A stretch of 64,000 nt of DNA from a virus. Numbering within the stretch: position 1 is the first letter of the stretch; the number at the start of each line of letters is the position of its first letter. Below are positions 20,992-46,491 of this stretch, one piece after another. The stretch lies in IMG/VR virus record IMGVR_UViG_3300042519_001698, one strand, 5' to 3'. The notes beneath the pieces are model-generated. The model saw only the letters and a program-made list of their open reading frames with translations. It had not been told where the DNA came from and did no database searches. A program made the translations under genes and the position numbers.

Positions 20992-22440
20992 TTATTTGTT
21001 ATTGTTTTGTTTATCGGAAATATATTCTCCCGCTTCATAATTAGTGATACTACCATCGAATATTCCCTTATCAGGTATTGTATTATCTATTTCAAGTGCA
21101 TCATACCATTCTTTTAATTCGGGAAATGTTTTACCAAAGTCTTTATTTCTACGAACATCGTATTGAGTGTAAAAACTCTTAAAGTCGTGAAATTGTAAAT
21201 CCTTTTGCAATTCAGTATCATTATGACCTCTATTCACAACTTCTAAATAATCTATCAATCTTTCAATTTGTGATTTCTCATTTATACTAAATAAATCACT
21301 ATCCCTGTTATCATTGTACCAATTTTGTAATTTATTACGCAATGTTAATTTGATTTCGTCAGGTAACATTAATGGTGACATAAATGATGGCCATCTAAGG
21401 ATGTTCAAATCCATGTTAGGTCGATGTGCGCCATATTTTTTCTTTAAGGTTTTCATATCCTCAAAGAATTCGACAATACTAAACAAACATAAACTATTGA
21501 TTGTCATCATAATAGTTAAAGCTCTAAAGTTAGCCTTCTCTAAAAAGGTTACTAAGTTCTCTCTCCATGTTTTATAATTCAAACCATCTCTTATGTATTC
21601 AGCGTGTGGACCATAAGATTCATTACTAGTATATAAATCAAATTCTTTAATCTTCAACTCATGAGTTGCGGTGATTAATTTCTCTAATAATTTTTTACTT
21701 AGTCCTAAATTAGAATTTACCGCCAATCTTAAATTAGTTGCTGGATATTGTTTCACAGTTTCAATGAAACTCCAAAAGTTGTAACTCTGTGATGGTTCTC
21801 CACCCGTTACTCTAATTTCTTGTAATGTTTTAGATAACTCTGGCCACCACTCTAAGAACGCATTAACGTATGGGTTATTCTCACCATTTTTACCATAGAT
21901 TTCAGACCAAGATCCGTCACTTTGGTATGCACCAGCACTACTCGTTTTAAATTTTTGGTAGGATCCGTTTGTTTTAATGTCTTTACCCCATGTGGTACTG
22001 TATCCAGCATTACAATAACTACAAGCAAAATTACAAGTCCTATCAAAACTCACCTCAACTGTCTTCAATAAAACATCTTGGTCCCAAGGTATATTTTTTA
22101 ATGCTGCAATATCCTCATCACTATAAATTTGACTTTTAAAGATTCTATCTGCGATATTGTTTCTACCGATATCTTCTACTTTCCAACAATATGAACATTC
22201 AGCGGGTTTAATACCCGTTAACATCATACGACGCATTTCCTTCTTGTGTTTGGTATTGTGAAGTGCCGATGGGTTAGTTTTAATCTCTTCCAAATCAATT
22301 GGATGTGGTAAGGGTAAATGACAAGAATTGGTATAACCATGACCCAAGTGTAAACTCGCATTGTACCATTTTGCGGCACAAAAACTACAACTTATTGAGT
22401 TCAAGTGTTTATCTCTCCATTCTGCTAATTCATTTGACAT
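20992..22440 (-). CDS. Radical SAM protein with N-terminal Cys-rich (twitch-like) domain
   Basis: CAAKW..SCHLP..CSYCW N-terminal cluster; CNFACSYC; RVTGGEP; VNSN; YTSNES. Confidence 0.9.
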   Translation of the reverse strand: MSNELAEWRDKHLNSISCSFCAAKWYNASLHLGHGYTNSCHLPLPHPIDLEEIKTNPSALHNTKHKKEMRRMMLTGIKPAECSYCWKVEDIGRNNIADRIFKSQIYSDEDIAALKNIPWDQDVLLKTVEVSFDRTCNFACSYCNAGYSTTWGKDIKTNGSYQKFKTSSAGAYQSDGSWSEIYGKNGENNPYVNAFLEWWPELSKTLQEIRVTGGEPSQSYNFWSFIETVKQYPATNLRLAVNSNLGLSKKLLEKLITATHELKIKEFDLYTSNESYGPHAEYIRDGLNYKTWRENLVTFLEKANFRALTIMMTINSLCLFSIVEFFEDMKTLKKKYGAHRPNMDLNILRWPSFMSPLMLPDEIKLTLRNKLQNWYNDNRDSDLFSINEKSQIERLIDYLEVVNRGHNDTELQKDLQFHDFKSFYTQYDVRRNKDFGKTFPELKEWYDALEIDNTIPDKGIFDGSITNYEAGEYISDKQNNNK

Positions 22441-22495
22441 ATATCTTTATTTATTTAATTAATATAACATTTTTATTTATAATTTAAAATTGTAT

Positions 22496-23155
22496 TTACA
22501 CAATTTTAGCGGGTCTACCTAACTTATTAAATTCTACACTTTTTTCACTTTTTATTTCTTCAGATTCAAAGAAATTACCGTGATTCCCACTACCTGATTT
22601 GTCATATGTTTTAAAACTTGTATTCTTTTTAAAATCAAACCATAAAAACATATTTTCAAACGTTTCTTCACTACTGTGGTATATTTTAACATCTGAAATA
22701 TTACCATAAAACCAACGATAATTTTTGTTTACACAATGTGGATTTCCTGAACCAACATATATGTATTTATCTTTGTGGTCATATAATTTATATTTTATTT
22801 TTTGTTTGGTATATAACCTATTGTTAACGTACATAATGAATTCGTCATCTTTTTTTATAACTTTCACTTTATTATATATGTTCGCCCCTATTTCTGTGTG
22901 GACCATTATTTCATTTACCACATCTTCATCTTCATCGTTAACCTCTAACCATTTCCATTTTATAAAATATTCATCATTGTAGTTATATACAAAAATACCC
23001 ATGGAACCTTCTCTAGTTAAAACACAAGATTCGTTTCCTAAATCTATACTATCTTCGTCGACTTTAAATGTTGCTTCAAATATAAAATCACCACTTAACG
23101 ATTCGTAACTTTTTGTATTTGTTTTACTATTTGCGTACCTATCTACTATATACAC
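22496..23155 (-). CDS. LamG/concanavalin A-like domain protein
   Basis: FIFEATFK, MYVNN, IYVGSG, FYGNISDVKIY, YDKSGSGNHG; paralog of 23176-23946. Confidence 0.7.
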   Translation of the reverse strand: MYIVDRYANSKTNTKSYESLSGDFIFEATFKVDEDSIDLGNESCVLTREGSMGIFVYNYNDEYFIKWKWLEVNDEDEDVVNEIMVHTEIGANIYNKVKVIKKDDEFIMYVNNRLYTKQKIKYKLYDHKDKYIYVGSGNPHCVNKNYRWFYGNISDVKIYHSSEETFENMFLWFDFKKNTSFKTYDKSGSGNHGNFFESEEIKSEKSVEFNKLGRPAKIV

Positions 23156-23175
23156 TTTTAGATTTTTTTTATTCT

Positions 23176-23946
23176 TTACTTTTTTTCGTTTTTTTTTTCT
23201 TCTATTTTTGATTTCAGTATTTCTAATTCACCGGTTTTTTCTTTTATAACTCTTTCTATCTCCTCAATTTCTTTTTTTATTTTTTCAATTTCGTCCTTTT
23301 TAACTTTTTTAGTTAATTGTTGAAATAAAATTCCATTATTTTTATTACCTGATTTATCTAAAATTTCTAAATCCGTATTATTTTCAAAATCAAACCACAG
23401 ATATAAAGTATTGATATTTTCATCAAGACTATCGTAAATTTTAATATCGTAAATTTCACCGTTGAACCATCCGTTATTATTGTTTACACTATTAGGGTCT
23501 GAAACTCCCACATACATCAATTTATCAGAATAGTCAAACAGATTATGTTTAATTTCTTTACTTTCATATAATTCACCATTAATGTAGAGACTAAACTCCG
23601 CATCTTTTTTAGTGACTTTTACATTTGTAATATTTGTTAATTCATACTTCTTGTGTACGAAAATTTCATTACAAACATGGTTGTTTTCATTATCAACTTC
23701 CCACCACACCCATTTTATAAAATTTTCATCGTTAAAATTATAAATGTAAATACCCATATTGTATCCCTCTCTTGATACAACACAACTGTCGGTGCTTTTT
23801 AATTTATTAGTGTTTAATTTAAATGTCGCCTCGAATGTAAAATCGTTATTAGTTATTAAATCATAACTTTCAGGGTTTAAATCGTTATCTGAAAAACGAT
23901 TTACTACGTAGGCTTTTTTGTTTTTGAATATCATATTTTTCCGCAT
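23176..23946 (-). CDS. LamG/concanavalin A-like domain protein with C-terminal coiled coil
   Basis: FTFEATFK, LYINGEL, FNGEIYDIKIY, LDKSGNKNNG; KEEI-rich tail. Confidence 0.7.
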   Translation of the reverse strand: MRKNMIFKNKKAYVVNRFSDNDLNPESYDLITNNDFTFEATFKLNTNKLKSTDSCVVSREGYNMGIYIYNFNDENFIKWVWWEVDNENNHVCNEIFVHKKYELTNITNVKVTKKDAEFSLYINGELYESKEIKHNLFDYSDKLMYVGVSDPNSVNNNNGWFNGEIYDIKIYDSLDENINTLYLWFDFENNTDLEILDKSGNKNNGILFQQLTKKVKKDEIEKIKKEIEEIERVIKEKTGELEILKSKIEEKKNEKK

Positions 23947-25322
23947 TTATGGTAAAATTCCTCCAATTCGGGGAAAGTTTTACAAAAGTTAGTGTTTCTT
24001 CTAATGTCATGTTCAGTAATGAACTTGTAAAAATCTTTTCGATTTGTATCAATCATTTTATTACCTTCTGACGAAGTAAACCAATCTTTTATTCTTATTA
24101 TTTTATTTATTTCTATATCTGTAAACCCATGTCCATCCACAACACCCGTTCTTACTTGTTCATAAAAATCAACAAGTTTTGCCTGTTCGTCAATTGCTGT
24201 TACCCAACTATCTTCTAATATTTTTACAGTTTGATGTTCGGGAAATCTCAAATATGAGGAATCTAACAATAACGATGATCCCCAATATCTATATGGATTA
24301 TGGTGTCTCTTTTTTAATTCTGCAACATCTTCAATTAGATACTTGTAATTTGGTACTGACAATGCATTATACGTCGACATAATGTCAATTGTAAGTGGTT
24401 TAAACTTATCTAATAAGAAATCAATTCTCTCTTTAAATAAATTATAATCAAACCCATTTCTAATGTATTCCGCCTGTGGTCCCCAAGTATCACAAGATGT
24501 AAAGATTATAAATTCATGTACTAATTCTTTATCTAATATTTTTTCTATTTTGTTGACAAATTCATCAAACAATTTTTTAGGTATCCCTAAATTACTATTG
24601 ATACATAAACTTAGTTTCTTATTTGGGGTGGGTGTTTCAATTATGTAATCTAAAATCTTAAAGGTGTCTTTATTTAATAAAGGTTCTCCTCCTGTGATTC
24701 TAAATGTATGTAAGTCTTGGTACATTTCAGGCCACCATTTCCAAAACGCATCAACGTATGGATTTTTATCTGACGCTAAGTACGGCATCGTATCTTCCTT
24801 CTTAAACCATTCGATATCGTTGTAATTGGTACTTGTCTTATACGGACCATGAGTGTTAATCTCTTCCATCCATTTAGAAGAATATAGAGGACCACAATAT
24901 GAACATTTAAAATTACAAGTGTTTGAAAAACTAACCTCAACATACTTTGGGTTATAATTCTTTTTCCAACCAGATTTTAAAATGTCTTCTAAGTAAGGCG
25001 CTGACCATGGCTCTGAAGATTTAAGTGTTCTATCTGAAAATGCGTAAGATGCTCCCTCGATATTCCAACAATAATCACATTCATCGGGTTTTTTATTATC
25101 AAGCATTTCTTTACGAATTTCTTTTTTAAATTTCGTATTATGTAATGCAGTTGGGTTAGATAAAATCTCTTCTAACGGAATCTTATGTGGTTTAGGGTGA
25201 TGACAAGAATGTGTTGTACCATTGTGTAGGTGCATGGTAACTTGGGTCCATTTTGCTAAACAAAATCCACACCCAACCATGTTCAATTTATCTCTAGTAC
25301 TTTCAAAAACCTCTTTTAACAT
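23931..25322 (-). CDS. Radical SAM protein with N-terminal twitch-like domain
   Basis: CLAKW..SCHHP..CDYCW; CNFKCSYC; RITGGEP. Confidence 0.9.
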   Translation of the reverse strand: MLKEVFESTRDKLNMVGCGFCLAKWTQVTMHLHNGTTHSCHHPKPHKIPLEEILSNPTALHNTKFKKEIRKEMLDNKKPDECDYCWNIEGASYAFSDRTLKSSEPWSAPYLEDILKSGWKKNYNPKYVEVSFSNTCNFKCSYCGPLYSSKWMEEINTHGPYKTSTNYNDIEWFKKEDTMPYLASDKNPYVDAFWKWWPEMYQDLHTFRITGGEPLLNKDTFKILDYIIETPTPNKKLSLCINSNLGIPKKLFDEFVNKIEKILDKELVHEFIIFTSCDTWGPQAEYIRNGFDYNLFKERIDFLLDKFKPLTIDIMSTYNALSVPNYKYLIEDVAELKKRHHNPYRYWGSSLLLDSSYLRFPEHQTVKILEDSWVTAIDEQAKLVDFYEQVRTGVVDGHGFTDIEINKIIRIKDWFTSSEGNKMIDTNRKDFYKFITEHDIRRNTNFCKTFPELEEFYHKCGKI

Positions 25323-25915
25323 TCTAATATTTTATGATGTATGAAATTCAAATTACCTGTCTTATCGATGGACTTATTAAAAATAAAATCTTCACAAGTA
25401 TGATGGGCAATTAATTTATTTTTTTCATAAACTTTAAACTCATGAATATACATTTCAGTACTATTAGAAGTGTCATCTACATGTGAAAAACTATTAGCAC
25501 CAAAAACAACACACGGATTTGAATCTATGTATAATCCTAATTTCTCCAAACTTAAATCTAATTGTACTTCGTCGTTAATATAAATTATTAAAGACTTTTT
25601 AGGAACGTGTACCATTTTCAAATCAATTTCAACACCATCGTGAATTGCAAATGGGAATTGAAAAAATTGAGAAGAGTCATCTTCAAATCTAACAGTAAAG
25701 AATAACATATTCTTGTGAATATCCAATCCACAATATTTTGGTAAAATTGTAAAAACTGTTGCGTTTTTATCAAGTGTATCTAATAGTGTTAATCTCATTT
25801 CAATTTTAAAGTTATATTCTCCACTTAAAATCTTTGTTGCAGGATTTTCAGGGAAAGTATCACATAAAACAGATGGATAGAATATCCAAGGACTATATTT
25901 TTTTATATGTATCAT
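25316..25915 (-). CDS. Divergent concanavalin A/LamG-like protein
   Basis: Beta-rich; IYINDE, VFGAN, IHEFKVY and DKTGNLN echo the neighbouring LamG-like proteins. Confidence 0.5.
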   Translation of the reverse strand: MIHIKKYSPWIFYPSVLCDTFPENPATKILSGEYNFKIEMRLTLLDTLDKNATVFTILPKYCGLDIHKNMLFFTVRFEDDSSQFFQFPFAIHDGVEIDLKMVHVPKKSLIIYINDEVQLDLSLEKLGLYIDSNPCVVFGANSFSHVDDTSNSTEMYIHEFKVYEKNKLIAHHTCEDFIFNKSIDKTGNLNFIHHKILEC

Positions 25916-27287
25916 AAAATTTCTTTAATTCAGGAAAGGTTTTAACAAAATTAGTGTCTCTTCTTTTATCTAATTCATCTACGAATTTTACAAAATCCTT
26001 TCTATTTTTTTCTACATCAAATTCATCTTCATGAATTGCATAGTCATATAATCTTTTTATTTTTTGAATTTCAGTGTTCGAGAACCCATAAGACCCTTGA
26101 ACAAATTCGGTCATACCATAATATAACGCTTTTTTCGCAGATTCCAAAATCAAATCTTTGTGTTTTTTATCTAAAATTTTAACCGATAGATGTGATGGGT
26201 ATCTTAAATAAGATGTATCCAATTGTATTGCTGAAATCCAATATCTCTGATTATTTGAATACTTTTTCTTTGCTTGGAAAACCCTTTCAATTAAATCACT
26301 ATATGTGAAAACTGATAGTGCGTTAAATGTGGACATAATGTTAATCGTAACCTTTGGAAGTACTGTAAGGATTTTTTCAACGTTTGTCCAAAATTTCTCA
26401 TAGTCCAATCCGTTCCTTGTGTATTCGGCTTGTTTACCCACCGCCTCAACAGATGTGAAAATGATTAACTCCCTAACCTTATTATTATCGGACAAATCTT
26501 TGGCTATTTCAATGAATCTATCAATTATAGCATCGGGTGATCCTAAATTTGTATTGATTGCTAATGATATGTTAGGGTTTATGTCTGAATGTTCTTGAAT
26601 GTACTCTAAAACCTTAAAAGTATCTTTTGCTAGTAAGGGTTCACCTCCCGTAATTCGGAACGTGTGTAGGTCTTTAAATAGGTCTGGCCACCATTCCCAA
26701 AATGCGTCGACATATGGATTATGCTCCGAGTGTTTATATGGCATTTCATTTTTGGCTTTTAAGTCATCAACACTATTGTATCGATAACTTAAATCGTAAT
26801 GACCATGTTTTTCAATCTCCTCAACCCACTTAGATGAGTATTGTGGACCACAATATGCACATTTAAAATTACAAGTGTTTGAAAATGAGACTTCTACATA
26901 TCTCGGATTATAATCTTCTCTCCAATTAGATTTAGAAATTTGTTCAAATTGGTCGGCTGACCATGGTTCTGTTGATTTAAAAACTCTATCAGAAAATGAA
27001 TTGGAGCTATCTTCAATACTCCAACAATAATTACACTCTGAAGGTCTCTTACCCTCTAACATTTGTTTTCTCTTGTCCTTCTTATACGTTGTATTATGTA
27101 AAGCGGAAGGATTTCTCTTCAATTCACTTAAAGGTATTTTATGTTGTACAGGGTGGTGACAAGAATGGGTTAAACCCGCACCTAAGTGAATAGTTACCTG
27201 AGTCCATTTAGCTAAACAGAACCCGCACCCCACACCATCTAATTTATCTTTAGTTTTTTGAAACTCTTGTATATTACTATCTGACAT
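25893..27287 (-). CDS. Radical SAM protein with N-terminal twitch-like domain
   Basis: CLAKW..SCHHP..CNYCW; CNFKCAYC; RITGGEP; close paralog of 23931-25322. Confidence 0.9.
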   Translation of the reverse strand: MSDSNIQEFQKTKDKLDGVGCGFCLAKWTQVTIHLGAGLTHSCHHPVQHKIPLSELKRNPSALHNTTYKKDKRKQMLEGKRPSECNYCWSIEDSSNSFSDRVFKSTEPWSADQFEQISKSNWREDYNPRYVEVSFSNTCNFKCAYCGPQYSSKWVEEIEKHGHYDLSYRYNSVDDLKAKNEMPYKHSEHNPYVDAFWEWWPDLFKDLHTFRITGGEPLLAKDTFKVLEYIQEHSDINPNISLAINTNLGSPDAIIDRFIEIAKDLSDNNKVRELIIFTSVEAVGKQAEYTRNGLDYEKFWTNVEKILTVLPKVTINIMSTFNALSVFTYSDLIERVFQAKKKYSNNQRYWISAIQLDTSYLRYPSHLSVKILDKKHKDLILESAKKALYYGMTEFVQGSYGFSNTEIQKIKRLYDYAIHEDEFDVEKNRKDFVKFVDELDKRRDTNFVKTFPELKKFYDTYKKI

Positions 27288-27297: not shown

Positions 27298-28704
27298 TTA
27301 TAAAGTTACGTTAATCATTGTTACATTATCTTCGCAATATACATCAATAAGTTCATATATTAAACTATTCATACCCTCATTTTTATAATCAATCTTCCCT
27401 TGTTGCATCTTTGTGACGAATCTCTTTTCATTTTTAGCTGTGGTGGTACCTTTAGCCCATTTTCCATTCACAAACCCCTCATCAGGGTGTTCCATACAAT
27501 AAAACCTACCTTCCCTCCTCTGTGGTATTAAATTTTGTGTAACATCAAAACTTTCTTTTTGGATTTCCACATCATATCCCCATCCTGTTACTGAATTTAC
27601 TTTATTAACAAATCCCTCTGAAAAATCATAATGAAGTAGTAAATTTTCATTTGTATTGAAGACATCATCAATTTTATCAAAAAAGTTATTGAATATTTTA
27701 ACTTCAGCAATTTTACCTCTGTAAAACGTAAACGTTTCATTACAGAATCCAAGAATGAATGGTTCTGTGTGATTGTGTTTCATTAACTCTTCACCAACAA
27801 TGAATGACTTATGTTCCTTACTTCCACCTCTATTTGTTACCAATTCATCATTAATATATAAAAACATTTCTTTGGTTTTATTATTAAATGACATAGTTAC
27901 CCAAGTCCATTCGTTTTCAAATTTCTTTGCGTAGTTATAATGATTTTTATGTTTAACATCAAACATACTCATATTAACTGAACGTGAATTATTGAAAGAT
28001 AAACCCCATGTCCAACTTCCTTTTTTTCTCATTAATGGGTACTCAACAAATTTTCTTTTCTCATCACCCACTAACCAAATAGGGACTTTACCAGGTTGTT
28101 GTTCAGCACAAAATAAAATTGAAATCGTATGGTTATCGTTCAAACAATTTGTTAATTCTTCATTTGTTGAGAATAAAGAAAATGATTTTTTACCGTCAAA
28201 TATTGCAACGGGTTTATTTTTATACGATTTAAAAATTGAGTTGTTTGAATACCCCTCAAAATGACATCTCCAAAAAAGGTCATCGTCTTCCTGACCCCAA
28301 TCCCAATATTCATTTGAATATCCATTTGTTCTTTCTATCTGTTCTTTTGTAAATAAAACAACTCCACCGAAGTATTGGTCATAACCTAATGTATAATTGT
28401 ATTTTGATAATTTTGTTGCGATATGAATTGGATGATTTTCGGGATATGAATAATCACACTCTTCAAATGGTGACATATCAACATCGTGAAATGCAACATA
28501 ATCACATCCATCTTCAAACGCATGTTTAGCTGCAATATTTTTCATCGCACCTCTATTAAATAATTTATCATCAACTTGATGTGCAACATAAAACTTATGT
28601 TCAATACCTTGTTTATTTAAATGTGCCGTCAAACGAGGTACTAATTGATCTAAGTGATGTTTTCTGTTTCTATATGGTATACAGATACCTAATTTATGAC
28701 TCAT
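27298..28704 (-). CDS. GT7 (beta-1,4-galactosyltransferase-like) glycosyltransferase with inserted LamG domain
   Basis: IPYRNR, FNRGAMKN, FHDVD (DxD), YFGGV, NGYSNEYWDWGQEDDDL; LamG-like segment at about 27570-28210; C-terminal EGMNSLIY. Confidence 0.85.
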   Translation of the reverse strand: MSHKLGICIPYRNRKHHLDQLVPRLTAHLNKQGIEHKFYVAHQVDDKLFNRGAMKNIAAKHAFEDGCDYVAFHDVDMSPFEECDYSYPENHPIHIATKLSKYNYTLGYDQYFGGVVLFTKEQIERTNGYSNEYWDWGQEDDDLFWRCHFEGYSNNSIFKSYKNKPVAIFDGKKSFSLFSTNEELTNCLNDNHTISILFCAEQQPGKVPIWLVGDEKRKFVEYPLMRKKGSWTWGLSFNNSRSVNMSMFDVKHKNHYNYAKKFENEWTWVTMSFNNKTKEMFLYINDELVTNRGGSKEHKSFIVGEELMKHNHTEPFILGFCNETFTFYRGKIAEVKIFNNFFDKIDDVFNTNENLLLHYDFSEGFVNKVNSVTGWGYDVEIQKESFDVTQNLIPQRREGRFYCMEHPDEGFVNGKWAKGTTTAKNEKRFVTKMQQGKIDYKNEGMNSLIYELIDVYCEDNVTMINVTL

Positions 28705-30143
28705 ATTCCTATATTAATGTGTGTGAAGTTTTCGTTAATAACATTTACTCCATGTTCAACAAATTCCAATGTTGACAGTCCGTCGTTTTTTATTAATTCA
28801 TCATTATTTATTACTTCATTGTAAAACCTAAGTTGGTTCCATCTGGTGGCGATTGATTTCCATCTATTTTTATAAAATCCATTTTCTAAATGTGGCATCA
28901 ATCTAAATTGTGATTGTCTTCTAAATGGTATTTTTACATCAGTAAATTCATCTTCATTAGTTTGAATTATTTCACAATTAACAATCTCCCCATGATTATT
29001 ATTACCACTTAAATCAAATAATTGATAGTATTCTATATGTGAAGCATCGTAATATAATTTTAATAAATGTGACGATACATAATCACCATTATTTTCAGTT
29101 AATTTTTTATCAAAATTGTTTGATATTTGGGATATTTCATTTTCATTTAATACTCCATCCCATATCACAAAAGAATCGATGGTACCCTTAAAAAATTTCT
29201 CTCCTGTTATACCTTTAATGGTTTCTCTTTCTGGTAGACCAACCCCTAAATAAAAATATTCTTCTTTAGAATAATCATATATTCTATTTTCAAATTGTGT
29301 CTCACCAATTTTTATCCCGTCTTGATAAACAATAATTGTTTTTTCGGTATTGTTTACCACAATACACATATTTGTTTTATAGTTTGGTTTAATTTTTGAA
29401 TTAACATATAATGCGTTTAAATCATCATCAAACGTACAAAAATTATATCTTGAAAATGAATTATATGATATTGAGAAGTCATATCCAGGTATTGTAAAAA
29501 CATTAAAATCGTCAACCACATCCATGTGATTACAAATAAATTTTTCAGGTTTAAATGAAACAAAAAATGTTAGATTATTATTTAAACTAAAAGTTTTTTT
29601 AGATTTAACATATGCATTTACTCCGTTGAATTTTAATGAGTCACATTTAGGTCTTAAATTTTTTAATTTTAAAGTGTCTAATTTCAAATCATGTTTTTTA
29701 CATCTATACAATAAATCGTCATCCTCATATCCCCATCCCCAATATTTGTTTGAATACCCATCAATTTTTTTAAAATCTTCAGTCGTAAACATTGTTACCC
29801 CACCAAAATACTCTTCAAAAGTTTCTTTAGGTTTTTCATCTTCATTGAAATATAAGAAATTAGTTGCCATGTGTAATGGTACATCTGAGTAACTATAATC
29901 TACATTCGCAGGAATCATATCTACATCGTGAAATACAACATAATCACATAATTCTTTTTCAGCGTATTTAAAACCAATGTTTAAAAGTGCTCCTCTGTTG
30001 AATTGTTTTGCATTGTCTTGACTTATAACAAAAACATGATAGGGAATCCCCAAACCATCTAAATAAAATTTGATGTTTCTAGAGAACTCCCTAAGTTGTG
30101 CTTTACGATTCCTATAAGGTACAATAATACCTAACTTTTTCAT
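28701..30143 (-). CDS. GT7 (beta-1,4-galactosyltransferase-like) glycosyltransferase with inserted LamG domain
   Basis: VPYRNR, FNRGALLN, FHDVD, YFGGV, DGYSNKYWGWGYEDDDL; LamG-like segment at about 28970-29640; C-terminal DGLSTLEF. Confidence 0.85.
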   Translation of the reverse strand: MKKLGIIVPYRNRKAQLREFSRNIKFYLDGLGIPYHVFVISQDNAKQFNRGALLNIGFKYAEKELCDYVVFHDVDMIPANVDYSYSDVPLHMATNFLYFNEDEKPKETFEEYFGGVTMFTTEDFKKIDGYSNKYWGWGYEDDDLLYRCKKHDLKLDTLKLKNLRPKCDSLKFNGVNAYVKSKKTFSLNNNLTFFVSFKPEKFICNHMDVVDDFNVFTIPGYDFSISYNSFSRYNFCTFDDDLNALYVNSKIKPNYKTNMCIVVNNTEKTIIVYQDGIKIGETQFENRIYDYSKEEYFYLGVGLPERETIKGITGEKFFKGTIDSFVIWDGVLNENEISQISNNFDKKLTENNGDYVSSHLLKLYYDASHIEYYQLFDLSGNNNHGEIVNCEIIQTNEDEFTDVKIPFRRQSQFRLMPHLENGFYKNRWKSIATRWNQLRFYNEVINNDELIKNDGLSTLEFVEHGVNVINENFTHINIGI

Positions 30144-30155: not shown

Positions 30156-30371
30156 TTATTCTACGTCATCACCTTTTTTATAAACCTCATCTACTAAATA
30201 TTTTTTATAATATTCATATAGATAATGTTGAATTCTTTCACTCCATTCATCCTTATCGATTCCTTCGAACCAAATTGTTAATGAATCTAATGAATTACCG
30301 ATTTTTTCAAGCGCCTTAACTTTTCTTAATTCAAGGTCGAGTAATTGTTTTTCTTTTTCTTCCTTTGTCAT
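30156..30371 (-). CDS. Hypothetical protein
   Basis: 71-aa ORF overlapping the upstream stop by 4 nt. Confidence 0.65.
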   Translation of the reverse strand: MTKEEKEKQLLDLELRKVKALEKIGNSLDSLTIWFEGIDKDEWSERIQHYLYEYYKKYLVDEVYKKGDDVE

Positions 30372-31225
30372 ATTGATTTTATTTTATTTATTAATAGTTT
30401 CCAACCTCTATACCTTTGATATTCGGGGTATTTTAAACCTAATTCGAACATAAAGTCAGGGTTTTCTAAATTTATTTTAAATTTTGTTTTTATTAACGAT
30501 TTAAACATTAATGCATACTCGTCTGAATATGAATAATCTTTTTTTACATTTATAACTTCTTTAATTCTGTCAATTACCGTTTTATCCCATTTAAAATGGT
30601 GTACTTGAACGGTACTATTGGGGTTAATTAATGGGTGGTTCCATCCTTGCCATCTCCAAGTTGTTTGTTCATTTATTTTAGCATAATGTTGTCCATTTGT
30701 AATTTCAATATATCCCTTCATTACACAAATTTTATTTGGACATGCTTGACTCATTGGGTATCTAAAAAACCCTGCATTTGGAAATTGTTCCCATATGGAA
30801 ACGTCGTCAACCAATTCAGAAAATTCACCCCCTCTTCCTACTCTATCAATAAAACCACCTCTAACTAAATCCCAACCGTTGTCGTCACATTCGTTTATCA
30901 AATCATTTAAACTGTCATTTGGATATAAATGAAATTCATCAATATCTGCAATTACCCACCAATCATTTAAATGTTTTGATTTATTGAAATTATACAACAT
31001 GGTTACCTTCTCAAAATCATACACCCTGTCTTTAATTGTATGTGTGATTTTAACATTATCAAAATCTTTGATGATATCTTTTACTTTATGTAAAATCATC
31101 GGTTCAATATCCGATTCGTATACAACTATGTTTATTTCATCAACATATTTTTCATAATGATTGATGAAATGTGGTAACATATTTGTTCCGTGACCAATAA
31201 CTGTTAATAATCTAATCATGAACAA
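30368..31225 (-). CDS. GT-A fold glycosyltransferase (GT2/GT92-like)
   Basis: MLPHFINHY, WWVIADIDEFH (DxD-EF), HHFKW. Probable start is the ATG at 31219. Confidence 0.7.
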   Translation of the reverse strand: MFMIRLLTVIGHGTNMLPHFINHYEKYVDEINIVVYESDIEPMILHKVKDIIKDFDNVKITHTIKDRVYDFEKVTMLYNFNKSKHLNDWWVIADIDEFHLYPNDSLNDLINECDDNGWDLVRGGFIDRVGRGGEFSELVDDVSIWEQFPNAGFFRYPMSQACPNKICVMKGYIEITNGQHYAKINEQTTWRWQGWNHPLINPNSTVQVHHFKWDKTVIDRIKEVINVKKDYSYSDEYALMFKSLIKTKFKINLENPDFMFELGLKYPEYQRYRGWKLLINKIKSI

Positions 31226-31264: not shown

Positions 31265-32020
31265 TTATTTTTTTCTAATAATTGTAATCCCTGTGGAAGA
31301 TGGTTTGTTTTTAACGATTCCGTGATTGAATAGATTTATTTTCTCCCAAACATTGGTGTCAATTTCTTGTGAAAATTTAATAGGTCCTGTCCAATCGTCG
31401 TGATCACCCCTATCCTTAACTTCTTGAGTTACAATGAATTTGTCAGCGTAATTGGGGTCAGTATCGTGTATAGATACGATACCATTTGGTGATAGTAATT
31501 GTGTGTATAATTCAAAATCTTCTTTAACATTTTCATAACTATGTCCCGCGTCAATATGGAGATAATCTATTTTAATTTCTTGTTTAACAAAGAAATTATA
31601 AAAAGCATCTTCAGTTGTGGTGTTCAATATTCTTGGACTATAGACTCTTCTAAAAAATGATTCTTCATTCATCCAATTAACATTCCCACCAACACCATTT
31701 GTTGCATCAACCACAAATGTTGTTCCTATATCACCCCAATTTATATCACGGGTACCATCAAATATTTTTTGTGAATGTAAATCTAATCTAGCCTGTGTCA
31801 TAATTCGTGGGATAAATCCACCACCACTACCTAAACACACACAAATTTTGGCCCTCATAAATTGAATTAATGAGTATATGATTAAACCATCACCTAAATG
31901 CTCATCCGTTGCACCGTGAGACCATCTATATGGTACATTAACTAATTTTTCATCACCAACCTCATCAAATTCAACGTTGTTGGTAATTTCACATCTTATA
32001 AATTCTTGATTAATTATCAT
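31265..32020 (-). CDS. Class I SAM-dependent methyltransferase (Methyltransf_24-like)
   Basis: CLGSGGG, IDYLHIDAGHSYE, GIVSIHDT. Confidence 0.85.
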   Translation of the reverse strand: MIINQEFIRCEITNNVEFDEVGDEKLVNVPYRWSHGATDEHLGDGLIIYSLIQFMRAKICVCLGSGGGFIPRIMTQARLDLHSQKIFDGTRDINWGDIGTTFVVDATNGVGGNVNWMNEESFFRRVYSPRILNTTTEDAFYNFFVKQEIKIDYLHIDAGHSYENVKEDFELYTQLLSPNGIVSIHDTDPNYADKFIVTQEVKDRGDHDDWTGPIKFSQEIDTNVWEKINLFNHGIVKNKPSSTGITIIRKK

Positions 32021-32753: not shown

Positions 32754-33482
32754 CTATAAACCAAACCTTGATTTTTGTATATTGTAGTTTTGTGTAACCA
32801 TTGTACTTGTAAACCCAACTCCTTTGTATATTTTAACAGATGCAACTCGTATTTTAGAATGATCTCCACTACCTGCCCCTATTAAAAGAGGGTTTCCCGT
32901 ATTATTAAACGCGGCATTAGTCCAACTTTGAGTACCAACAGATGAATTATTTATATACATATATCCAGTATTACCAACTCTAGTTAATACAACGTGTTTC
33001 CATTGATTTAAGTCAGTATTAGTTGATATAGTTGTTTCGTAAGTTCCATCATTTGAATAATTTCTCATAGTAGTACCGGGTGAATTCATAATAACCCATC
33101 CTGATGCTGGCCATTTTGATTGAAAAGTACCTATATATCCTGAATAATTTTGTGGTTGAGCTCCATCTAAATAAATCCATAAATCAATAGTAAATTCACC
33201 GGTACCAAAATCCCAATTTGAAGAATCTGGAATAGTTACATAATCATTAGTTCCATCAAAATTAATATACCCTTGATTACCACTACTAAATGTTGGTCCA
33301 TTTGTTAAAGTACCATTATTATTATTTCCTGATAAATCACTCCAACTTGTTCCTGAACCTGGATAAGATTCTAGTGCTGATGCATCTAAATGTAACACCA
33401 ATCCTCTTGTAATTACATTTTTATAATCTTCCACATCAGCATGTGTTCCGTTATATATGTGTCCTCCTATATTAAATGGCAT
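32754..33482 (-). CDS. LamG-like lectin/fibre-tip protein
   Basis: GLVLHLDAS..SYPGSGTSWSDLSGNNNNGTLTNGPTF, FDGTNDY, WKHVVLT, QNYN..KSRFGL. Confidence 0.85.
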   Translation of the reverse strand: MPFNIGGHIYNGTHADVEDYKNVITRGLVLHLDASALESYPGSGTSWSDLSGNNNNGTLTNGPTFSSGNQGYINFDGTNDYVTIPDSSNWDFGTGEFTIDLWIYLDGAQPQNYSGYIGTFQSKWPASGWVIMNSPGTTMRNYSNDGTYETTISTNTDLNQWKHVVLTRVGNTGYMYINNSSVGTQSWTNAAFNNTGNPLLIGAGSGDHSKIRVASVKIYKGVGFTSTMVTQNYNIQKSRFGL

Positions 33483-33492
33483 AATTTATATT

Positions 33493-34200
33493 TTATAATC
33501 CAAATCTATTTTTTTGTGCATTATAGTTTTGTAAAACTTCAGCCGCGGTTAGTGGTCTATTATAAAATCTTGCTACCGATATTTTGGCATTTCCATATCC
33601 AGCATAACTAGCAATAGTAAAAGATACGTTCATATCTGTGGGTACATTAGTCAATGCTCCTGTTGATTGTTGTGAACCATTTAAATATAGATACATATTA
33701 GCACCATTAAAAGTTCCAACTACGTGATACCAAACACCGGTCACAAAAGCGGTAGTTGTACTAATTGTGTCATATGGATTTGCGGTTGTTCCAATAACCT
33801 CCCATCTCATGTAATTAGAAGATGGCATGTAAAAGTTTATATACTTTCCACCACCTCCATAGTCTATAAATCCTTGATTTCTATCTTTACTTATTAAATT
33901 TACCCACATTTCTAATGTTGCACCGCCAGCAAAAGACGTTGAAATATTTGAAGTAGTTATATGATCGTTTGTTCCATCAAATGAAATACTCCCATTACCA
34001 TCACTTGAATAAGTTGGTCCGTTTTGTAAAGTACCGGTTGTAGATGTAACTAAATCATACCAACTAGTTCCCGTTTCGGGATATGAATCTTTTGCAGATG
34101 CATCAAAATGAATACTCAATCCTCTAGTAACAATACTTTTGTAATTTAAAGTACTAGCAATTTGACTATTAACAATATTTCCATTTATATTTAAAGGCAT
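33493..34200 (-). CDS. LamG-like lectin/fibre-tip protein
   Basis: GLSIHFDAS, FDGTNDH, WYHVVGTF, LYLNG, YNRPLTAAEVLQNYN..RFGL. Confidence 0.85.
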   Translation of the reverse strand: MPLNINGNIVNSQIASTLNYKSIVTRGLSIHFDASAKDSYPETGTSWYDLVTSTTGTLQNGPTYSSDGNGSISFDGTNDHITTSNISTSFAGGATLEMWVNLISKDRNQGFIDYGGGGKYINFYMPSSNYMRWEVIGTTANPYDTISTTTAFVTGVWYHVVGTFNGANMYLYLNGSQQSTGALTNVPTDMNVSFTIASYAGYGNAKISVARFYNRPLTAAEVLQNYNAQKNRFGL

Positions 34201-36557: not shown

Positions 36558-39500
36558 TTAAGATTTTTTAGGAGTTGCAATATTAGGGTCAACTTCGGTT
36601 AAAGCAAACTTATAAACTTTACCCTTCTTATTATTATATAAGAATAAATCATCTTCACCTTCCACTATTGTCCAATCACCTATTCCATTATTTAATGATA
36701 AGTCAGATGTATAAACTGTACTCCAACGAGCTGCTGCCGAACCTAAATCTCTTGTTCCATTTGCTTCAGGTAAAACGTTACCCGCTACCGTTAATGTTGA
36801 ACCATCAAATGTTAAATTCGCTTCAGCATTTAATGTAACACCACCGACACTTGTCATTACTCTATTATCAACCGCATTTGTGATTGTTGTTGTACCACTA
36901 GAACCTGAAGAACCGTTACTACCACTAGAACCTGATGTTCCTGATGAACCTGAACTTCCCGATGTTCCACTAGAACCTGAAGAACCACTTGTCCCTGAAG
37001 AACCTGATGAACCATTACTACCACTAGAACCACTTGTACCTGAACTACCTGAAGAACCATTACTACCACTAGAACCTGATGTTCCCGAAGTTCCACTAGA
37101 ACCATTGGAGCCTGAAGTACCAGATGAACCATTACTACCGCTAGAACCTGACGTTCCACTAGAACCATTGGAACCACTTGTACCAGAAGAACCTGATGTT
37201 CCACTTGTCGCCGCAGTATATGATGTTCCGTTTATTAATAACGAACCTGTTATACTTAAACTACCTGTAACTTGATGTGTGTCATCATTTGTATCTCCAA
37301 ACTTGGTTGACCCTGAAGAATACATAACAGATGATGTAACATATGTCATATAAAGTTCGTCAGCGGTAATTGCACCTTTAACTTTTAATGAGCCGGTAAT
37401 TTCAACATTTTTAGTTGCCGACCATATAGAACCAGTTTGTGCAAATATTGAATCTCCTGATGAACCGCTTGAACCATTGGAACCTGAACTTCCAGATGTT
37501 CCACTTGAGCCTGACGTACCCGCTGTTCCTGATGAACCACTTGAACCTGATGTTCCACTAGACCCCGACGTACCCGCTGTTCCTGATGAACCTGAGGAAC
37601 CATTAGAACCTGATGTTCCACTGGAACCTGAAGAACCATTACTACCACTAGAACCTGATGTTCCTGATGTCATTGCTGAGAATGAAACACCATTTACTAT
37701 TAATGTACCGTTAGTTCTAATTGAACCCGTTACCTCAATATCATTTCCAAAAACAACTTTAGTTGCTCCTGAACTTGTAATTTTATTACCGTCTTGTATT
37801 TGAACGGTACCTCTTAAATCAATTAATCCTGTTGTTGGGTCTAATAATACATTACCTCCGCCCGATGTTTTTAATTGAATATCGCCGTCATTACTTTGTA
37901 ATGTAATTGTATCAGTTCCAGCTTCTAAAATCTTAAATGATTGACCAACATCGGTTGTAATCTGTAATTCTTGACTGGTGCTACCCAAAACTTTTTGTCC
38001 ATCAATATATAATGAACCTGATGACAAATATAAGTGTCTAAATTGTTTTGATGATGAACCTAAATCATATGTGTTATTAATTGAAGGTACAATGTGTCCA
38101 ACTGCCGATGTATCGATAGCACCACTAACCATATGTCCACCAAATATTACGTTTACACTACCTGAAATTGGACTACCAAAATAAACATCAACATTGTTAG
38201 CGTCGATTGATTTTATTTGAGTTGGGATAACCACATTTTTATTACTATCCCAAACAGTTACCGATGGAAAATTAGTACCTAAATTATGTGCTACTGACCA
38301 TGTTGTTGATGATGCAAATGTTTGTGTTGTACCACCAATACCATCTCTACCACTCGTTCCTGATGAACCTGAAGTACCAGCAGTCCCTGAAGAACCACTA
38401 GAACCTGAAGACCCTGATGAACCTGAACTACCACTAGTTCCAGACGTTCCAGAAGAACCTGATGTACCACCTGTACCGCTAGAACCTGAACCACCACTAG
38501 TTCCTGATGAACCAGCACCACCTGTTGTTAAACTGGCAGTTCCTGTTAATGATGATGAGAATGTAACTGTTAAATTATTTGAATCAATAGCTTGAACATT
38601 ACTTGGTATAACTAAATAACCATTACTGTCATAAATCATGACAGATGGATATCTTTGACCTAAATTGTGAGTAATACTCCAAGTTGTACCTGTAAATCCT
38701 GAAGTAAATGAAGTACCACTTAAACCCGATGTACCCGAGCTACCCGTAGCACCAGTTGTACCTGAACTACCTGATGTACCTGAGCTACCTGTGTCACCAG
38801 TTGTACCTGAACTACCTGATGTACCAGCCGTACCACTTGAACCCGATGTTCCCGCAGTACCTGAAGAACCTGACGTTCCTGAACTACCACTCGTTCCTGA
38901 TGTTCCCGCTGTTCCTGACGAACCACTTGTTCCTGAACTTCCCGATGTACCGGCTGTTCCACTAGAACCTGACGTACCTGATGAACCACTAGTTCCTGAA
39001 GAACCTGAACTTCCACTTGTACCTGAAGTACCTGAAGATCCATCACCACCTGACGCACCATCAAGGTTAATTGTCCATGATGTAAATGTACCTGTACCAA
39101 CTGTTCTACTTGGTGAACCAAAAGTTAATGTTGTTCCAGAATAACTAATGATTTCACATTCTTGGAAATGTGTTGAATCATTAACAATTATAATAGATTG
39201 TGCGGGTGTGTATGATAAATTCGCATCTACTGTTAATGTTCCTGAAGAACCTAATGTAAATGAACTTGTTGATGTTGTTTTATACTTGTCACTTAATCCT
39301 GAACTACCTGATGTACCTGCAGTTCCAGACGAACCACTTGTACCACTAGTTCCGGCCGTTCCTGATGAACCTGACGTACCTGATGAACCACTTGTTCCAC
39401 TAGTTCCTGAGGTTCCACTAGTACCTGATGAACCACTTGTACCTGATGTACCTGAAGAACCACTACTTCCTGACGTACCACTTGTTCCACTAGAACCTGA

Positions 39501-40340
39501 AGTGCCAGCTGTTCCTGATGAACCACTTGTACCTGATGAACCTGACGTACCAGCGGTTCCTGAACTTCCACTTGAACCTGATGTTCCACTTGTTCCTGAA
39601 CTACCTGATGTTCCACTTGTTCCTGTAGAACCACTAGAACCTGAAGTACCACTAGTTCCCGCACTACCTGATGAACCACTTGTTCCCGCCGTTCCTGAAG
39701 AACCACTAGACCCTGAAGTACCACTTGAACCTGAGGTACCCGCTGTTCCTGAAGAACCCGATGAACCACTTGTTCCTGATGTACCCGCTGTTCCTGAAGA
39801 ACCCGATGAACCACTTGTTCCTGATGTACCCGCTGTTCCTGAAGAACCCGATGAACCACTTGTTCCTGATGTACCACTTGTACCGGCCGTTCCTGATGAA
39901 CCACTAGAACCTGAAGTACCCGATGTACCACCTGTACCTGAAGAACCTGAACCACCACTAGTACCTGATGTACCCGATGTTCCGGCAGCATCTAACCATG
40001 TGGTACCATTATATCTATAAATGTTTGTGTCTGAAGTGTTATAATAAATCGAACCCGTTGCCTTTAAAATTGGGGATACGTTCGATGTGGGAATTGTAAG
40101 TGCTCCCGTTATAAAAACTGAACCAGTAAACAAATGGGAATCATCAATTGAATCACCAAAAACTGTGTTACCCGAAGAAAATGATTGGGTAAAATGTGAT
40201 ACTGAAGACGAAATTATCAATTCTTTAGCCGTGATGTTACCATCGACTATTAAATTTTCTGAAATTTGTACTGAGCCGGTTATAGTTGCGCCATTAGCAG
40301 CAACCAAAAGGCCGTTTTTTACTATAAATTGATTTGCCAT
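36558..40340 (-). CDS. Collagen-like (Gly-Ser/Thr) modular fibre protein 1
   Basis: Long G-x-y runs; two HNL modules; C-terminal [29 protein letters not shown] domain of phage-fibre type. Start set at 40340 ([10 protein letters not shown]) by homology with the next gene (MANELVVKNG). Confidence 0.85.
39736..39875. repeat. Three perfect 45-bp tandem copies within the collagen-like tract
   Basis: gtacccgctgttcctgaagaacccgatgaaccacttgttcctgat at 39736, 39781 and 39826. Confidence 0.9.
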
Positions 40341-40372
40341 ATGTCTACTGTTTTCACTGTCCAACAGTTATA

Positions 40373-40380
40373 TATAAATA
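40373..40380 (-). promoter_or_regulatory. TATTTATA motif, putative late promoter
   Basis: Upstream of fibre gene 1 and downstream of the terminator at 40401-40440. Confidence 0.5.
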
Positions 40381-40400
40381 CTACATTTTTTTGTTTAAGT

Positions 40401-40440
40401 AAATAAAAAAGGAGACATTTTATTGTCTCCTTTTTATTTT
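40401..40440. terminator. Intrinsic terminator (bidirectional-type)
   Basis: AAAAAGGAGACA-loop-TGTCTCCTTTTT with A/T tails on both sides, after the stop at 40457. Confidence 0.85.
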
Positions 40441-40456
40441 ATCAATATTATGTTTT

Positions 40457-43400
40457 TTATAATAAAGTTGTAGATGTTTTAAACTCCCATCCACCATTAG
40501 AAGTGAAATTTAAAACCACATTTCCACCACTTAATCCAACTGCGAAAGATGCTCCATCTGTACTTCCGATGTCAACTGTTGAGGTTTCATTGAAAACCAC
40601 AGTTGAGCCATTCCATACCGATGAAATCTGTCCTGAACGAGCGTTTGCCCCTTTAGATATTGTGTAGTTGTAGAATGCTGAGGTATTTGAACCTGTTGCG
40701 TTTGTTGATACAACCGAAGTACCGTTAGTTGAAGTTGTTTTATCACTAACAAATGTTGATTGTGTTGTTCCTGATATTTTTAATGAACCATTTACAACTG
40801 TATCTGAATTAATTGTTACAACATCTCCATCATCCGTTAAATTAGAATCTGTAATTCCTGTTGCTGACGCAAATCTAACTAATGCATTTATAGTTCCTGA
40901 AACTGAAACCGATGTACCTGAAGTACCGGCTGTTCCTGATGAACCACTTGTTCCCGCCGTTCCTGAAGAACCTGAAGAACCCGATGTTCCAGATGATCCA
41001 TCACTACCTGATGAACCACTTGTTCCCGCCGTTCCTGAAGAACCACTAGAACCTGAAGTACCAGCTGTTCCTGATGAACCCGAACTTCCTGAAGAACCAC
41101 TAGAACCATCACTACCTGATGAACCACTTGTTCCTGCTGTTCCTGAAGAACCTGATGTACCTGAAGTTCCTGAAGAACCTGATGTGCCAGCAGTTCCTGA
41201 AGAACCCGATGTACCTGAAGTTCCTGAAGAACCTGATGTACCCGCTGTACCACTAGAACCTGATGTCCCAGCCGTTCCACTAGAACCTGATGTCCCAGCC
41301 GTTCCACTAGAACCTGATGTTCCTGAAGAACCGTTACCACCTACTGTGGCAATCACGGTTCCACTTTGTGCTACACTAAAGTAAACTTTTAAATTGTTAC
41401 TATCTATAACCTCAATACCTGTTGGTATAACAACTTTATCGTTAACATCAAACACATTGATTGCTGGATATTTATAACCTAAATTGTGGTTAAATGACCA
41501 TGTTGTTGATGATGGAGTTACTGTTAATGTTTGTGTTTGACCTGAAACAATTACCGCGTTTAAAGCGTGTGATGCAGTTAATGCATATGATGAACTTGCA
41601 ATTGTTGATGTTGAACTTGAAACATATGAATTAAACCATGATTCGTCTAATTTACCTGTACCAATTGCTTGACCATTTAATGAAATTGAACCTGTGATAT
41701 TAACACTACCCGTAAATTGATGTGTATCGTCTAAAGTATCACCAAATCTATTTGAACCTGAAGTAAATAATACAGAAGAAGTCACATAATCCATGTGTAT
41801 TTCTCTTGCTGTTAATATACCATTAATATAGGTATCTCCGTTTACTCTGAATGTTCCATCAGATAAAATTGATGCACTTACTGAACCACTAACTATTTTA
41901 TTTAATTCTAATCCTGTAACTCCACTTGCTGGAATGTTATATAATCCCGCACCGTCACCTGTAAATGATCCTGAGATAGTTCCTCCCGCAGTTATAGTGT
42001 TTCCTACTTTTAATGTATTATTAACACCAACGATTTCAACTCCACCATATCCCGGATTAAGTACTAAAGTACCACCACCGTTTAAATATGTTTGACCGAA
42101 AATATTACCATCTATACTGAAACTTGAACTAACATCAAACATTGATATTGAACCTGTGAATTGAACGTCGTTTGTTGTCGCCCAAAAAGATCCTGTTTGA
42201 GCAAATAAACTGTCTCCAGAAGAACCTGATGTTCCTGCGGTTCCTGATGAACCTGACGTACCAGCTGTTCCACTTGAACCTGAAGTACCACTTGTTCCTG
42301 AAGAACCTGAAGTACCCGCGGTTCCTGATGAACCTGATGTACCACTTGTTCCTGAAGAACCTGAAGTACCAGCCGTTCCACTAGAACCTGATGTTCCTGA
42401 AGAACCATCACTACCTGAAGAACCTGATGTTCCAGATGAACCTGAAGTTCCCGCTGTTCCTGAAGAACCCGATGAACCACTTGTTCCTGCAGTGCCACTT
42501 GAACCTGAAGAACCTGAAGAACCACTAGAACCCGAAGTACCCGCCGTTCCTGAAGAACCTGATGTACCAGCTGTTCCTGAAGAACCTGAGGTACCTGATG
42601 TCATTGCTGCGAATGAAACGCCGTCAATAACTAAACTACCACTTGATATATTAACAGAACCCGAAATAAAGACTGAACCTGTAAATTCATGTGTATCGTC
42701 CGATGTATTACCAAATTTATTTGAACCCGACGTATACATTATTGAAGAACTTACGTAATCAATATTTAATTGTCTCGCAGTTAAAATACCTTTAACATTA
42801 ACATCTGAATCAATTTCTACAAGTGAACCATTATCAGTAATTTTTGAATCAACTAATGTTGGGTCACCAGCACCTGTTTGAAATTTACCAATTGTATTGT
42901 TTGTACCTGAAACGGTTACTGAAGTACCACTTGTTCCTGATGTACCGGCCGTTCCTGAAGAACCCGATGTACCAGCTGTACCTGATGAACCTGACGTACC
43001 CGCTGTTCCTGATGAACCACTTGAACCTGATGTTCCACTTGTTCCTGAAGAACCTGATGTACCAGCTGTTCCTGAAGAACCACTAGAACCTGATGTTCCC
43101 GCCGTTCCTGATGTTCCAGAAGAACCATCACTACCTGAAGAACCTGATGTTCCTGAAGAACCTGAAGTACCTGCCGTTCCTGAAGAACCTGATGTACCAG
43201 CTGTTCCTGATGAACCACTAGAACCTGATGTTCCTGAAGTACCTGCAGTTCCTGAAGAACCACTAGAACCTGATGTACCACTTGTTCCCGCAGCTGGTAA
43301 CCATGTGCTACCATCATATCTATATATGTTAGTATCAGTTGTATTATAATATATTGAACCTGTTGCGTTACCTATAGGATCTGATGATGCAGTTGGGATT

Positions 43401-44512: not shown

Positions 44513-44534
44513 TCTTGTATTTTTTGTTTTATAC

Positions 44535-44542
44535 TATAAATA
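44535..44542 (-). promoter_or_regulatory. TATTTATA motif, putative late promoter
   Basis: 22 nt upstream of the start at 44512. Confidence 0.5.
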
Positions 44543-44584
44543 GTATTTAATCTATCTTTATTTGCTTATTATATGTATATTTTT

Positions 44585-46426: not shown

Positions 46427-46491
46427 ATGTATGGGGTCCCCTTAAATTCTTTGTGATATGTATCACGGTTAACAACCTATATAGGTCATTC

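Follow-up and report, generated by a model that had tools for sequence, protein, structure and literature searches.

Two phage-encoded GT7 glycosyltransferases with a LamG domain nested in the catalytic fold

We analysed a 64-kb stretch of viral DNA (the window; GC about 30%, densely coding) from the IMG/VR record IMGVR_UViG_3300042519_001698, which is 97 kb long and rated 24% complete. Two of its adjacent genes, GTa and GTb, encode glycosyltransferases of family GT7 whose catalytic domain is interrupted by a laminin G-like (LamG) domain. Both proteins have the GT-A fold of the animal beta4GalT enzymes and an intact set of catalytic residues, both belong to a gene cassette conserved among related phages, and the nested architecture is confined to viruses. 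Our proposal, in which we have moderate confidence, is that the pair would carry out successive beta-linked hexose additions to a sugar-primed acceptor in making a virion-protein glycan, with the nested LamG docking onto or selecting the acceptor.

GTa (P0001, 468 amino acids (aa), 27298..28704) and GTb (P0002, 480 aa, 28701..30143) are paralogs on the minus strand that share a 4-base overlap (ATGA) and are 30% identical over their whole length. The original prediction, made from the letters alone, had listed a series of beta4GalT motifs in both open reading frames (ORFs). Both ORFs lie exactly at the stated coordinates and all the motifs are present, the only difference being in the W-loop motif, which reads YWDWGQEDDDL in P0001 and YWGWGYEDDDL in P0002. 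In GTa the N-terminal part of the GT7 domain (residues 1-153, 28246..28704) carries PYRNR, FNRG, DVD, YFGG and the W-loop/EDDD, and the GT7 tail (residues 394-468, 27298..27525) carries the metal-binding His406, the lid loop, R428/F429 and EGMNSLIY. Between them lies a jelly-roll insert of the LamG/pentraxin type (residues 154-393, 27526..28245), and the corresponding insert of GTb spans residues 156-405 (28929-29678). The interruption that had been predicted is thus real, but it is about 240 aa long rather than about 200.

Both halves of the interrupted domain were recognised by Pfam. Glyco_transf_7N matched GTa with E 9e-18 and GTb with E 6e-20 (64.7 and 71.6 bits, gathering cut-off 27), and Glyco_transf_7C matched them with E 3e-19 and 1e-20 (68.9 and 73.4 bits, gathering cut-off 23), the latter match ending early in both proteins, at profile position 61-66 of 78. 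The first approximately 46 positions of the 7N profile are missing, and the chains begin at the first core strand. In a sequence search of the PDB, residues 2-153 matched beta4GalT7 and beta4GalT1 at E ~1e-31; GTa 1-153 is 38-41% identical to these two enzymes, with a root-mean-square deviation (rmsd) of 1.1-2.1 Å over about 153 columns. A profile of the whole family reached a best E of 4e-54 against PDB sequences and recovered the B4GALT1 tail as a second, collinear, weak stretch (conditional E 7e-5).

To see how these parts are arranged, we used AlphaFold2 models built from family alignments and superposed them with VIA-align. The GTa model has a predicted local distance difference test score (pLDDT) of 93.1 and a predicted TM-score (pTM) of 0.88, and the GTb model scores of 95.3 and 0.90. 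On Drosophila beta4GalT7 (3lw6_A, 241 residues) GTa superposes with Z 27.1 and rmsd 1.9 Å over 207 aligned residues drawn from positions 1..468, and GTb with Z 25.9 and rmsd 2.0 Å over 205 residues from positions 1..480. Since the N-terminal part can supply only about 153 of the approximately 206 aligned residues, the C-terminal segment must complete the fold; the continuous GT-A fold closed by that segment, as the original prediction had it, is borne out by the models. The LamG is modelled as packed rigidly beside the intact GT-A fold, and the pTM values point to a fixed mutual arrangement of the two domains. Sequence, fold and active site place GTa and GTb within GT7, and they break the family's rule of a contiguous domain; this makes them a variant in architecture rather than outsiders to the family.

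Uninserted relatives confirm that this is a true nested insertion and not a terminal fusion, because proteins of about 220 aa join exactly across the insertion point. An exhaustive phmmer search returned about 60 full-length cluster representatives together with numerous shorter proteins (about 215-235 aa) whose match is limited to residues 1-156. The uninserted relatives are 35-50% identical to residues 1-155 (46-47% for those of about 220 aa) and have collinear tails; P0254, for example, is 47% identical over GTa 4-165 and its final 70 residues are collinear with GTa 395-460. Given that the short relatives are complete GT7 domains, the roughly 240 residues are extra. The same short soluble core of about 200-250 aa is found in P0254, in the galactosyltransferase A0A481YZG5 of Mimivirus LCMiAC01 and in L095 (Bacteroidota); these differ from GTa and GTb in having no insert, so that the helix after EDDD leads directly to the His-bearing strand. 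Two alternative placements were discarded. A MAFFT alignment set the tails of the uninserted relatives before the insert, whereas pairwise BLAST and the structures put them after it. A PqqD domain considered to occupy the same insertion site in the protein P0259 proved to follow a GT7 domain that is itself complete.

HMMER alignments place the splice site of the LamG between the equivalents of ~S329 and ~G336 of human B4GALT1. This is between the helix after the E-D-D-D motif and the strand bearing the metal-binding His, at the base of the lid loop (C-loop). I341 of human B4GALT1 is the pivot of the C-loop (PMC11734692), and the insertion point lies just ahead of the equivalents of this pivot and of the metal-binding His.

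The insert itself is a LamG-type jelly roll, as had been predicted. Pfam Laminin_G_3 matched P0002 with E 5e-8 (33.6 bits against a gathering score of 27.6) and P0001 with E 3e-4 (21.4 bits, below gathering), and in the family profile search of the PDB the middle part matched CBM40 and pentraxin chains with E from 1e-10 to 1e-4. By structure, the GTa insert is closest to the LamG of PAPP-A (Z 19.7), 4dqa (BACOVA_03559; Z 19.1) and laminin LG5 (Z 15.0), and the GTb insert to PAPP-A (Z 21.5) and 4dqa (Z 21.1). The inserts (residues ~160-400) also match pentraxins (Z 16-19) and the LG domains of laminin and neurexin (Z ~15).

Free-standing LamG proteins are encoded beside GTa and GTb, both in the window and in many of the 80 related phage loci that we surveyed. 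With a hidden Markov model (HMM) of these free proteins the insert body is recognised, residues ~165-345 aligning with HMM positions 70-238 at E down to 1e-17, which argues that the insert is related to its free neighbours. This kinship appears only with the HMM; BLASTP of the P0002 insert against one free LamG gave no match. The N-terminal segment of the free proteins ('LVLHLDAS...DLSGNNNNGTL'; pattern LxLxxDAS...DLSGNxNxG) has its counterpart in the final ~40 residues of the insert, beyond the body. Its best match falls within the 60 aa before the GT7 tail in 61 of 78 proteins, and it scores up to 14.6 bits, against no more than 1.8 for shuffled or reversed controls. Judged from the order of these matches, the nested LamG is a circularly permuted form of the free LamG_3 proteins in its own operon, and its strand order is collinear with the PAPP-A, 4dqa and pentraxin chains. 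Such a permutation would bring both ends of the domain together, as insertion into a loop needs.

A midpoint-rooted tree divides the GT7-LamG proteins into clades A and B, with support of 0.95 and 1.0. The insert diverges faster than the core, at 42% versus 74% identity within clade A and 19% versus 45% between the clades, yet each clade retains its own set of conserved polar and aromatic insert residues. In GTa this set includes H192, Q202, K206, W210, E221, R226, S236-R241, Y256 and W266. Such residues would give the look expected of a specific binding surface, and the alignments indicate that the insert is more than a spacer.

We evaluated the conservation of the active site in 99 distinct GT7-LamG sequences from the related loci (64 of clade A, 35 of clade B). 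In HMMER alignments, R14, F49, D76, Y111, W136, E139-D142 and H406 of GTa correspond to R187, F222, D250, Y285, W310, E313-D316 and H343 of human B4GALT1. In that enzyme these residues bind diphosphate and uridine, form the Mn2+ site, set donor specificity or belong to the W-loop, catalytic helix or C-loop (PMC11734692). R14, F49, D76, Y111, W136, E139-D140 and H406, and likewise D74, are invariant in 64/64 clade-A and 35/35 clade-B sequences. From this conservation, GTa and GTb both look catalytically competent, and by the rule established for B4GalT1 the invariant donor-gate Tyr suggests a hexose rather than an N-acetylhexosamine donor.

The acceptor side is similarly preserved. N425/R428/F429 of GTa align with bovine N356/R359/F360, which form the sugar-acceptor pocket of B4GalT1; the R428/F429 pair is conserved, R428 being invariant in clade A and Arg or Lys in 33/35 clade-B sequences. 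To our knowledge, every characterised GT7 enzyme transfers to a sugar. Given this and the conserved acceptor pair, an initiating role on Ser/Thr is less likely. The two proteins had been put forward as initiating or elongating transferases, and the conserved sugar-acceptor pocket favours the elongating half of that suggestion.

Comparison with B4GalT7 and B4GalT1 (CAZy GT7; 3LW6, 4IRQ, 6FWT, 1O0R, 2AE7) shows what has been kept and what has changed. The GT-A fold is shared (Z 26-27, rmsd 1.9-2.0 Å, 31-41% identity in the aligned parts), as are the DVD metal site, the donor-gating Tyr, the W-loop Trp, E-D-D-D, the lid-loop His and the R-F pair. The one-residue spacing of (Leu/Met)-x-His resembles the His-x-His of B4GalT7. 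Unlike the animal enzymes, GTa and GTb are phage-encoded, have a 240-aa LamG interrupting the catalytic domain, and are without the type II membrane anchor and stem. Neither protein contains a hydrophobic 19-mer or a stem region, from which we read them as soluble and cytoplasmic.

Other GT-A enzymes have their acceptor choice set by an attached or bound non-catalytic module. The GT27 polypeptide GalNAc-transferases combine a GT-A unit with a C-terminal ricin-type lectin domain, and in lactose synthase alpha-lactalbumin binds beside the closed lid loop of B4GalT1. The likeness to GTa and GTb is an analogy of mechanism only: the GT27 lectin is terminal and of another fold and alpha-lactalbumin is a separate protein, whereas the LamG described here is nested at the lid-loop hinge. 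In our searches of solved structures and the literature we found no GT7 member with a domain nested in the catalytic fold, and searches of the literature on GT7 or LamG in phages returned nothing relevant and no description of the nested architecture.

The family is widespread among uncultured phages. A homologue search gave 1744 matches, of which more than 120 cover the full length with at least 59% identity, every one annotated 'hypothetical'; at least 549 IMG/VR stretches (uncultured phage contigs), on contigs of up to 335 kb, encode a relative. ESM Atlas clusters with the nested architecture are 100% viral (Uroviricota). No cultured phage record that we searched has the variant: tblastn of P0001 against 50,697 GenBank phage records gave no match. 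GTa, GTb, the GT2-like enzyme and the 71-aa protein described below all lack a PHROGs family, and BFVD holds only uninserted giant-virus GT7 proteins and separate LamG proteins.

Outside phages, a single-protein scan of GTDB genomes found nothing and a profile scan gave three full-length matches in metagenome-assembled genomes (MAGs). In two of these, L084 and L085, the entire phage cassette is present, so that they are probably phage contigs binned with bacteria and not cellular genes. L084 is a 248-kb contig in a Flavobacteriaceae MAG and L085 a 23-kb contig in a Pelagibacterales MAG, both MAGs being GTDB species representatives; the contigs are at best weak hints of a host. The true bacterial relatives (L092, L095) are uninserted, and the small uninserted forms are themselves mostly viral. 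The description 'animal-type' in the original prediction was overstated: with uninserted kin at 35-50% identity in bacteria, phages and giant viruses, it names the best-studied members and not the range of the family. Two bacterial proteins have other fusions. In L092 (Desulfomonilaceae MAG, 3.3-Mb contig, 5983-8616) a GT7-like domain is joined to a radical S-adenosylmethionine (radical-SAM) domain in a protein of 877 aa, and the 576-aa P0259 combines a bacterial GT7-like domain, a PqqD peptide-recognition domain and a second GT-A-like region. These fusions hint at a recurring link between GT7, radical-SAM and peptides outside phages.

The GT7-LamG cassette is kept in all 80 related loci, with two copies of the gene in 70, three in four and one in six. 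GTb precedes GTa in each of the 33 loci with both copies in the tree. The paralogs are ancient, fixed in order and the core of a conserved phage cassette. Read along one strand, the loci run from Gly-X-Y fibres through one to five free LamG_3 proteins to o239, followed by the methyltransferase, the GT2-like and 71-aa proteins, GTb, GTa and the radical-SAM genes.

In the window, all on the minus strand, the 71-aa protein (30156..30371, an unlisted ORF), helical and charged, lies directly upstream of GTb, between it and the GT2-like gene, to which it is start-stop coupled through ATGA; tblastn finds it at the same position in 70/80 loci, and it matched no Pfam or PHROG family. The GT2-like glycosyltransferase (30368..31225; Glyco_tranf_2_4, E 6e-6, slightly below the gathering score; 68/80 loci) is a candidate for another step of the same glycan. 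A Methyltransf_24 methyltransferase (31265..32020; Pfam E 2e-10) is present in 65/80 loci. Further upstream, two free-standing LamG_3 proteins of 242 and 235 aa (32754..34200; Pfam E 5e-17 and 2e-25) represent a group found in 1-5 copies upstream of the cassette in many loci, and the 235-aa protein matches phrog_8510, 'virion structural protein' (E 5e-33). Three ORFs of similar size (223-237 aa, 34472-36554, minus strand) separate the free LamG genes from the fibre genes; they have no homologue in the 80 loci, and their matches to fibrinogen-C/COLFI are insignificant (E 0.007-0.015).

Downstream of GTa, three paralogous twitch radical-SAM genes (20992..27287, minus strand; NF033640 N_Twi_rSAM, E 7e-87 to 4e-104) are interleaved with small proteins, and almost every locus with downstream flank has a radical-SAM gene after GTa. 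One of the small proteins (23176-23946) is a clear LamG_3 (E 2e-11) and another (22496-23155) a weak one; the radical-SAM enzymes may each have a LamG partner in trans, versus the GT7 enzymes in cis. The far side of the window encodes RmlC, three SDR epimerase/dehydratases, a split thiamine pyrophosphate (TPP) enzyme, 2-oxoglutarate (2OG) oxygenases, a further radical-SAM enzyme and a carbamoyltransferase. The E1/transketolase-like halves of the TPP-dependent enzyme (7955-8587 and 16694-17233, both plus strand) are 8 kb apart, and the carbamoyltransferase, which is Nol-like, lies at 1338-3005. Together, the split TPP enzyme, RmlC, the SDRs, the 2OG oxygenases and the carbamoyltransferase suggest that the product is a deoxy sugar that is branched or unusual in some other way.

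Upstream of the cassette, genes on the minus strand at 36558..50579 encode collagen-like fibres (PHROG tail-fibre families) whose translations contain Ser/Thr-saturated Gly-X-Y tracts (GTS/GSS/GTA). Across the related loci, Ser accounts for 61% and Thr for 31% of the X and Y residues in these tracts (92% together), and Pro for ~0. The cassette lies downstream of Ser/Thr-rich Gly-X-Y fibre genes, on the same strand, in the window and in 20 of the 48 related loci with enough flank. Among five more distant cassette records, one has a Ser/Thr tract, one a short Thr/Asn-rich tract, and a 73%-complete one none. The short gap ahead of every fibre gene contains TATTTATA on the minus (coding) strand (40373-40380, 44535-44542, 46492-46499, 48778-48785). 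Over the window, the T4 late-promoter consensus TATAAATA shows no enrichment (16 occurrences, 14.8 expected), and only its reverse form stands ahead of the fibre genes.

These data allow us to propose how the pair may act. GTa and GTb would be soluble, cytoplasmic, metal-dependent, inverting GT7 enzymes, probably using a UDP-hexose donor, that attach two beta-linked hexoses, one after the other, to an acceptor already primed with a sugar during glycan assembly on a virion protein. The best candidate acceptor in the present phage would be the Ser/Thr-saturated collagen-like fibres, whose genes lie just upstream. The LamG insert would dock the enzyme on its target or select the acceptor, adjoining the lid loop whose closure forms the acceptor site. 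We favour a virion protein as the target because synteny on the same strand is conserved, the neighbouring LamG proteins are of virion type and no lipid-carrier machinery was found among the scanned ORFs. Comparable gene neighbourhoods, in which a repetitive hydroxy-amino-acid fibre or virion protein lies beside rare-sugar synthesis genes and several glycosyltransferases, belong to the O-glycosylated Bacillus BclA exosporium nap, the streptococcal serine-rich repeat adhesins and the glycosylated mycobacteriophage virions (Freeman et al. 2023, as cited in PMC12619734). All of these systems use GT2, GT4 or GT8-type enzymes, none of them GT7 or with a nested LamG; glycosylation of the phage fibres here is a prediction. 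The placement of the LamG a few residues before the lid-loop pivot also raises the speculative and rather improbable idea of a built-in allosteric switch, in which docking on a fibre, a primed glycan or a partner would control lid closure and hence catalysis. The domain would then be a cis-acting counterpart of alpha-lactalbumin on B4GalT1, and the circular permutation what let it be threaded in there.

Several observations weigh against glycosylation of a virion protein by this route. Gly-X-Y fibres lie within 10 kb in only 20 of the 48 loci with full upstream flank, and two phage records that are 73-77% complete have the cassette with no Ser/Thr-rich Gly-X-Y tract, so that a strict link between cassette and fibre is not supported. 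Most members of the family have Leu where the first metal ligand would be (bovine M344). Moreover, the nearby sugar-nucleotide genes resemble O-antigen and capsule clusters, a resemblance that fits remodelling of the host surface equally well. Under that alternative, the cassette would modify an envelope polysaccharide of the host (O-antigen, capsule or S-layer glycan), for example against superinfection, the GT7-LamG enzymes extending a lipid-linked or surface glycan to which the LamG binds. RmlC, the three SDRs, the TPP-enzyme pair, the carbamoyltransferase and the methyltransferases are typical of surface-polysaccharide loci, and a review of jumbo phages interprets such sugar-gene clusters as surface-polysaccharide remodelling (PMC7824862). 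Against it, families for a flippase, polymerase, ligase or initiating phosphoglycosyl transferase were not found among the window ORFs scanned, all enzymes of the cassette look soluble, and the cassette is co-oriented with the fibre and virion-type LamG genes. We consider this alternative unlikely.

The insert might instead be a scaffold that joins GTa, GTb, the free LamG proteins and the radical-SAM enzymes in one complex, or drives the pairing of GTa with GTb. LamG-fold proteins are scattered through the cassette beside each radical-SAM gene, the two paralogs are always retained as a pair whose order does not vary, and homology links the insert to the free LamG proteins. The distinct polar and aromatic patch conserved in each clade is, however, what a ligand site would have, and the nearest structural kin include the carbohydrate-binding CBM40 and pentraxin domains. 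We find a scaffold rather unlikely, and it would be compatible with acceptor docking too. The bacterial fusions of GT7-like domains to radical-SAM (L092) and PqqD (P0259), together with the conserved 71-aa ORF ahead of GTb, bring to mind glycosylation of a peptide or small molecule, alongside the radical-SAM enzymes, in a pathway like those of ribosomally synthesised and post-translationally modified peptides. This is distinctly improbable, since the 71-aa protein has no Ser/Thr/Cys-rich core, no protease or exporter was seen and the radical-SAM family NF033640 has no assigned substrate. Extension of sugars on hypermodified phage DNA bases is the least probable reading and seems very doubtful to us. 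T4-related phages glycosylate DNA, as do diverse viral glycosyltransferases (Pyle et al. 2024, as cited in PMC12619734), but the present cassette lies among fibre and virion genes rather than genes of nucleotide metabolism, and deoxy- or branched-sugar tailoring genes and LamG modules have no known precedent in DNA glycosylation.

Few glycosyltransferase families are understood as well as GT7, and a member with a nested domain adds an architectural variant to it. What is new here is the circular permutation of the insert, its placement before the lid-loop hinge and an acceptor pocket that favours elongation. As small, soluble, disulfide-free enzymes, GTa and GTb could be practical beta-hexosyltransferases with a swappable targeting module. 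If the cassette does glycosylate the Ser/Thr-saturated fibres, large aquatic phages would be covered by glycans of their own making, which would bear on host recognition, grazing and the stickiness of the particles.

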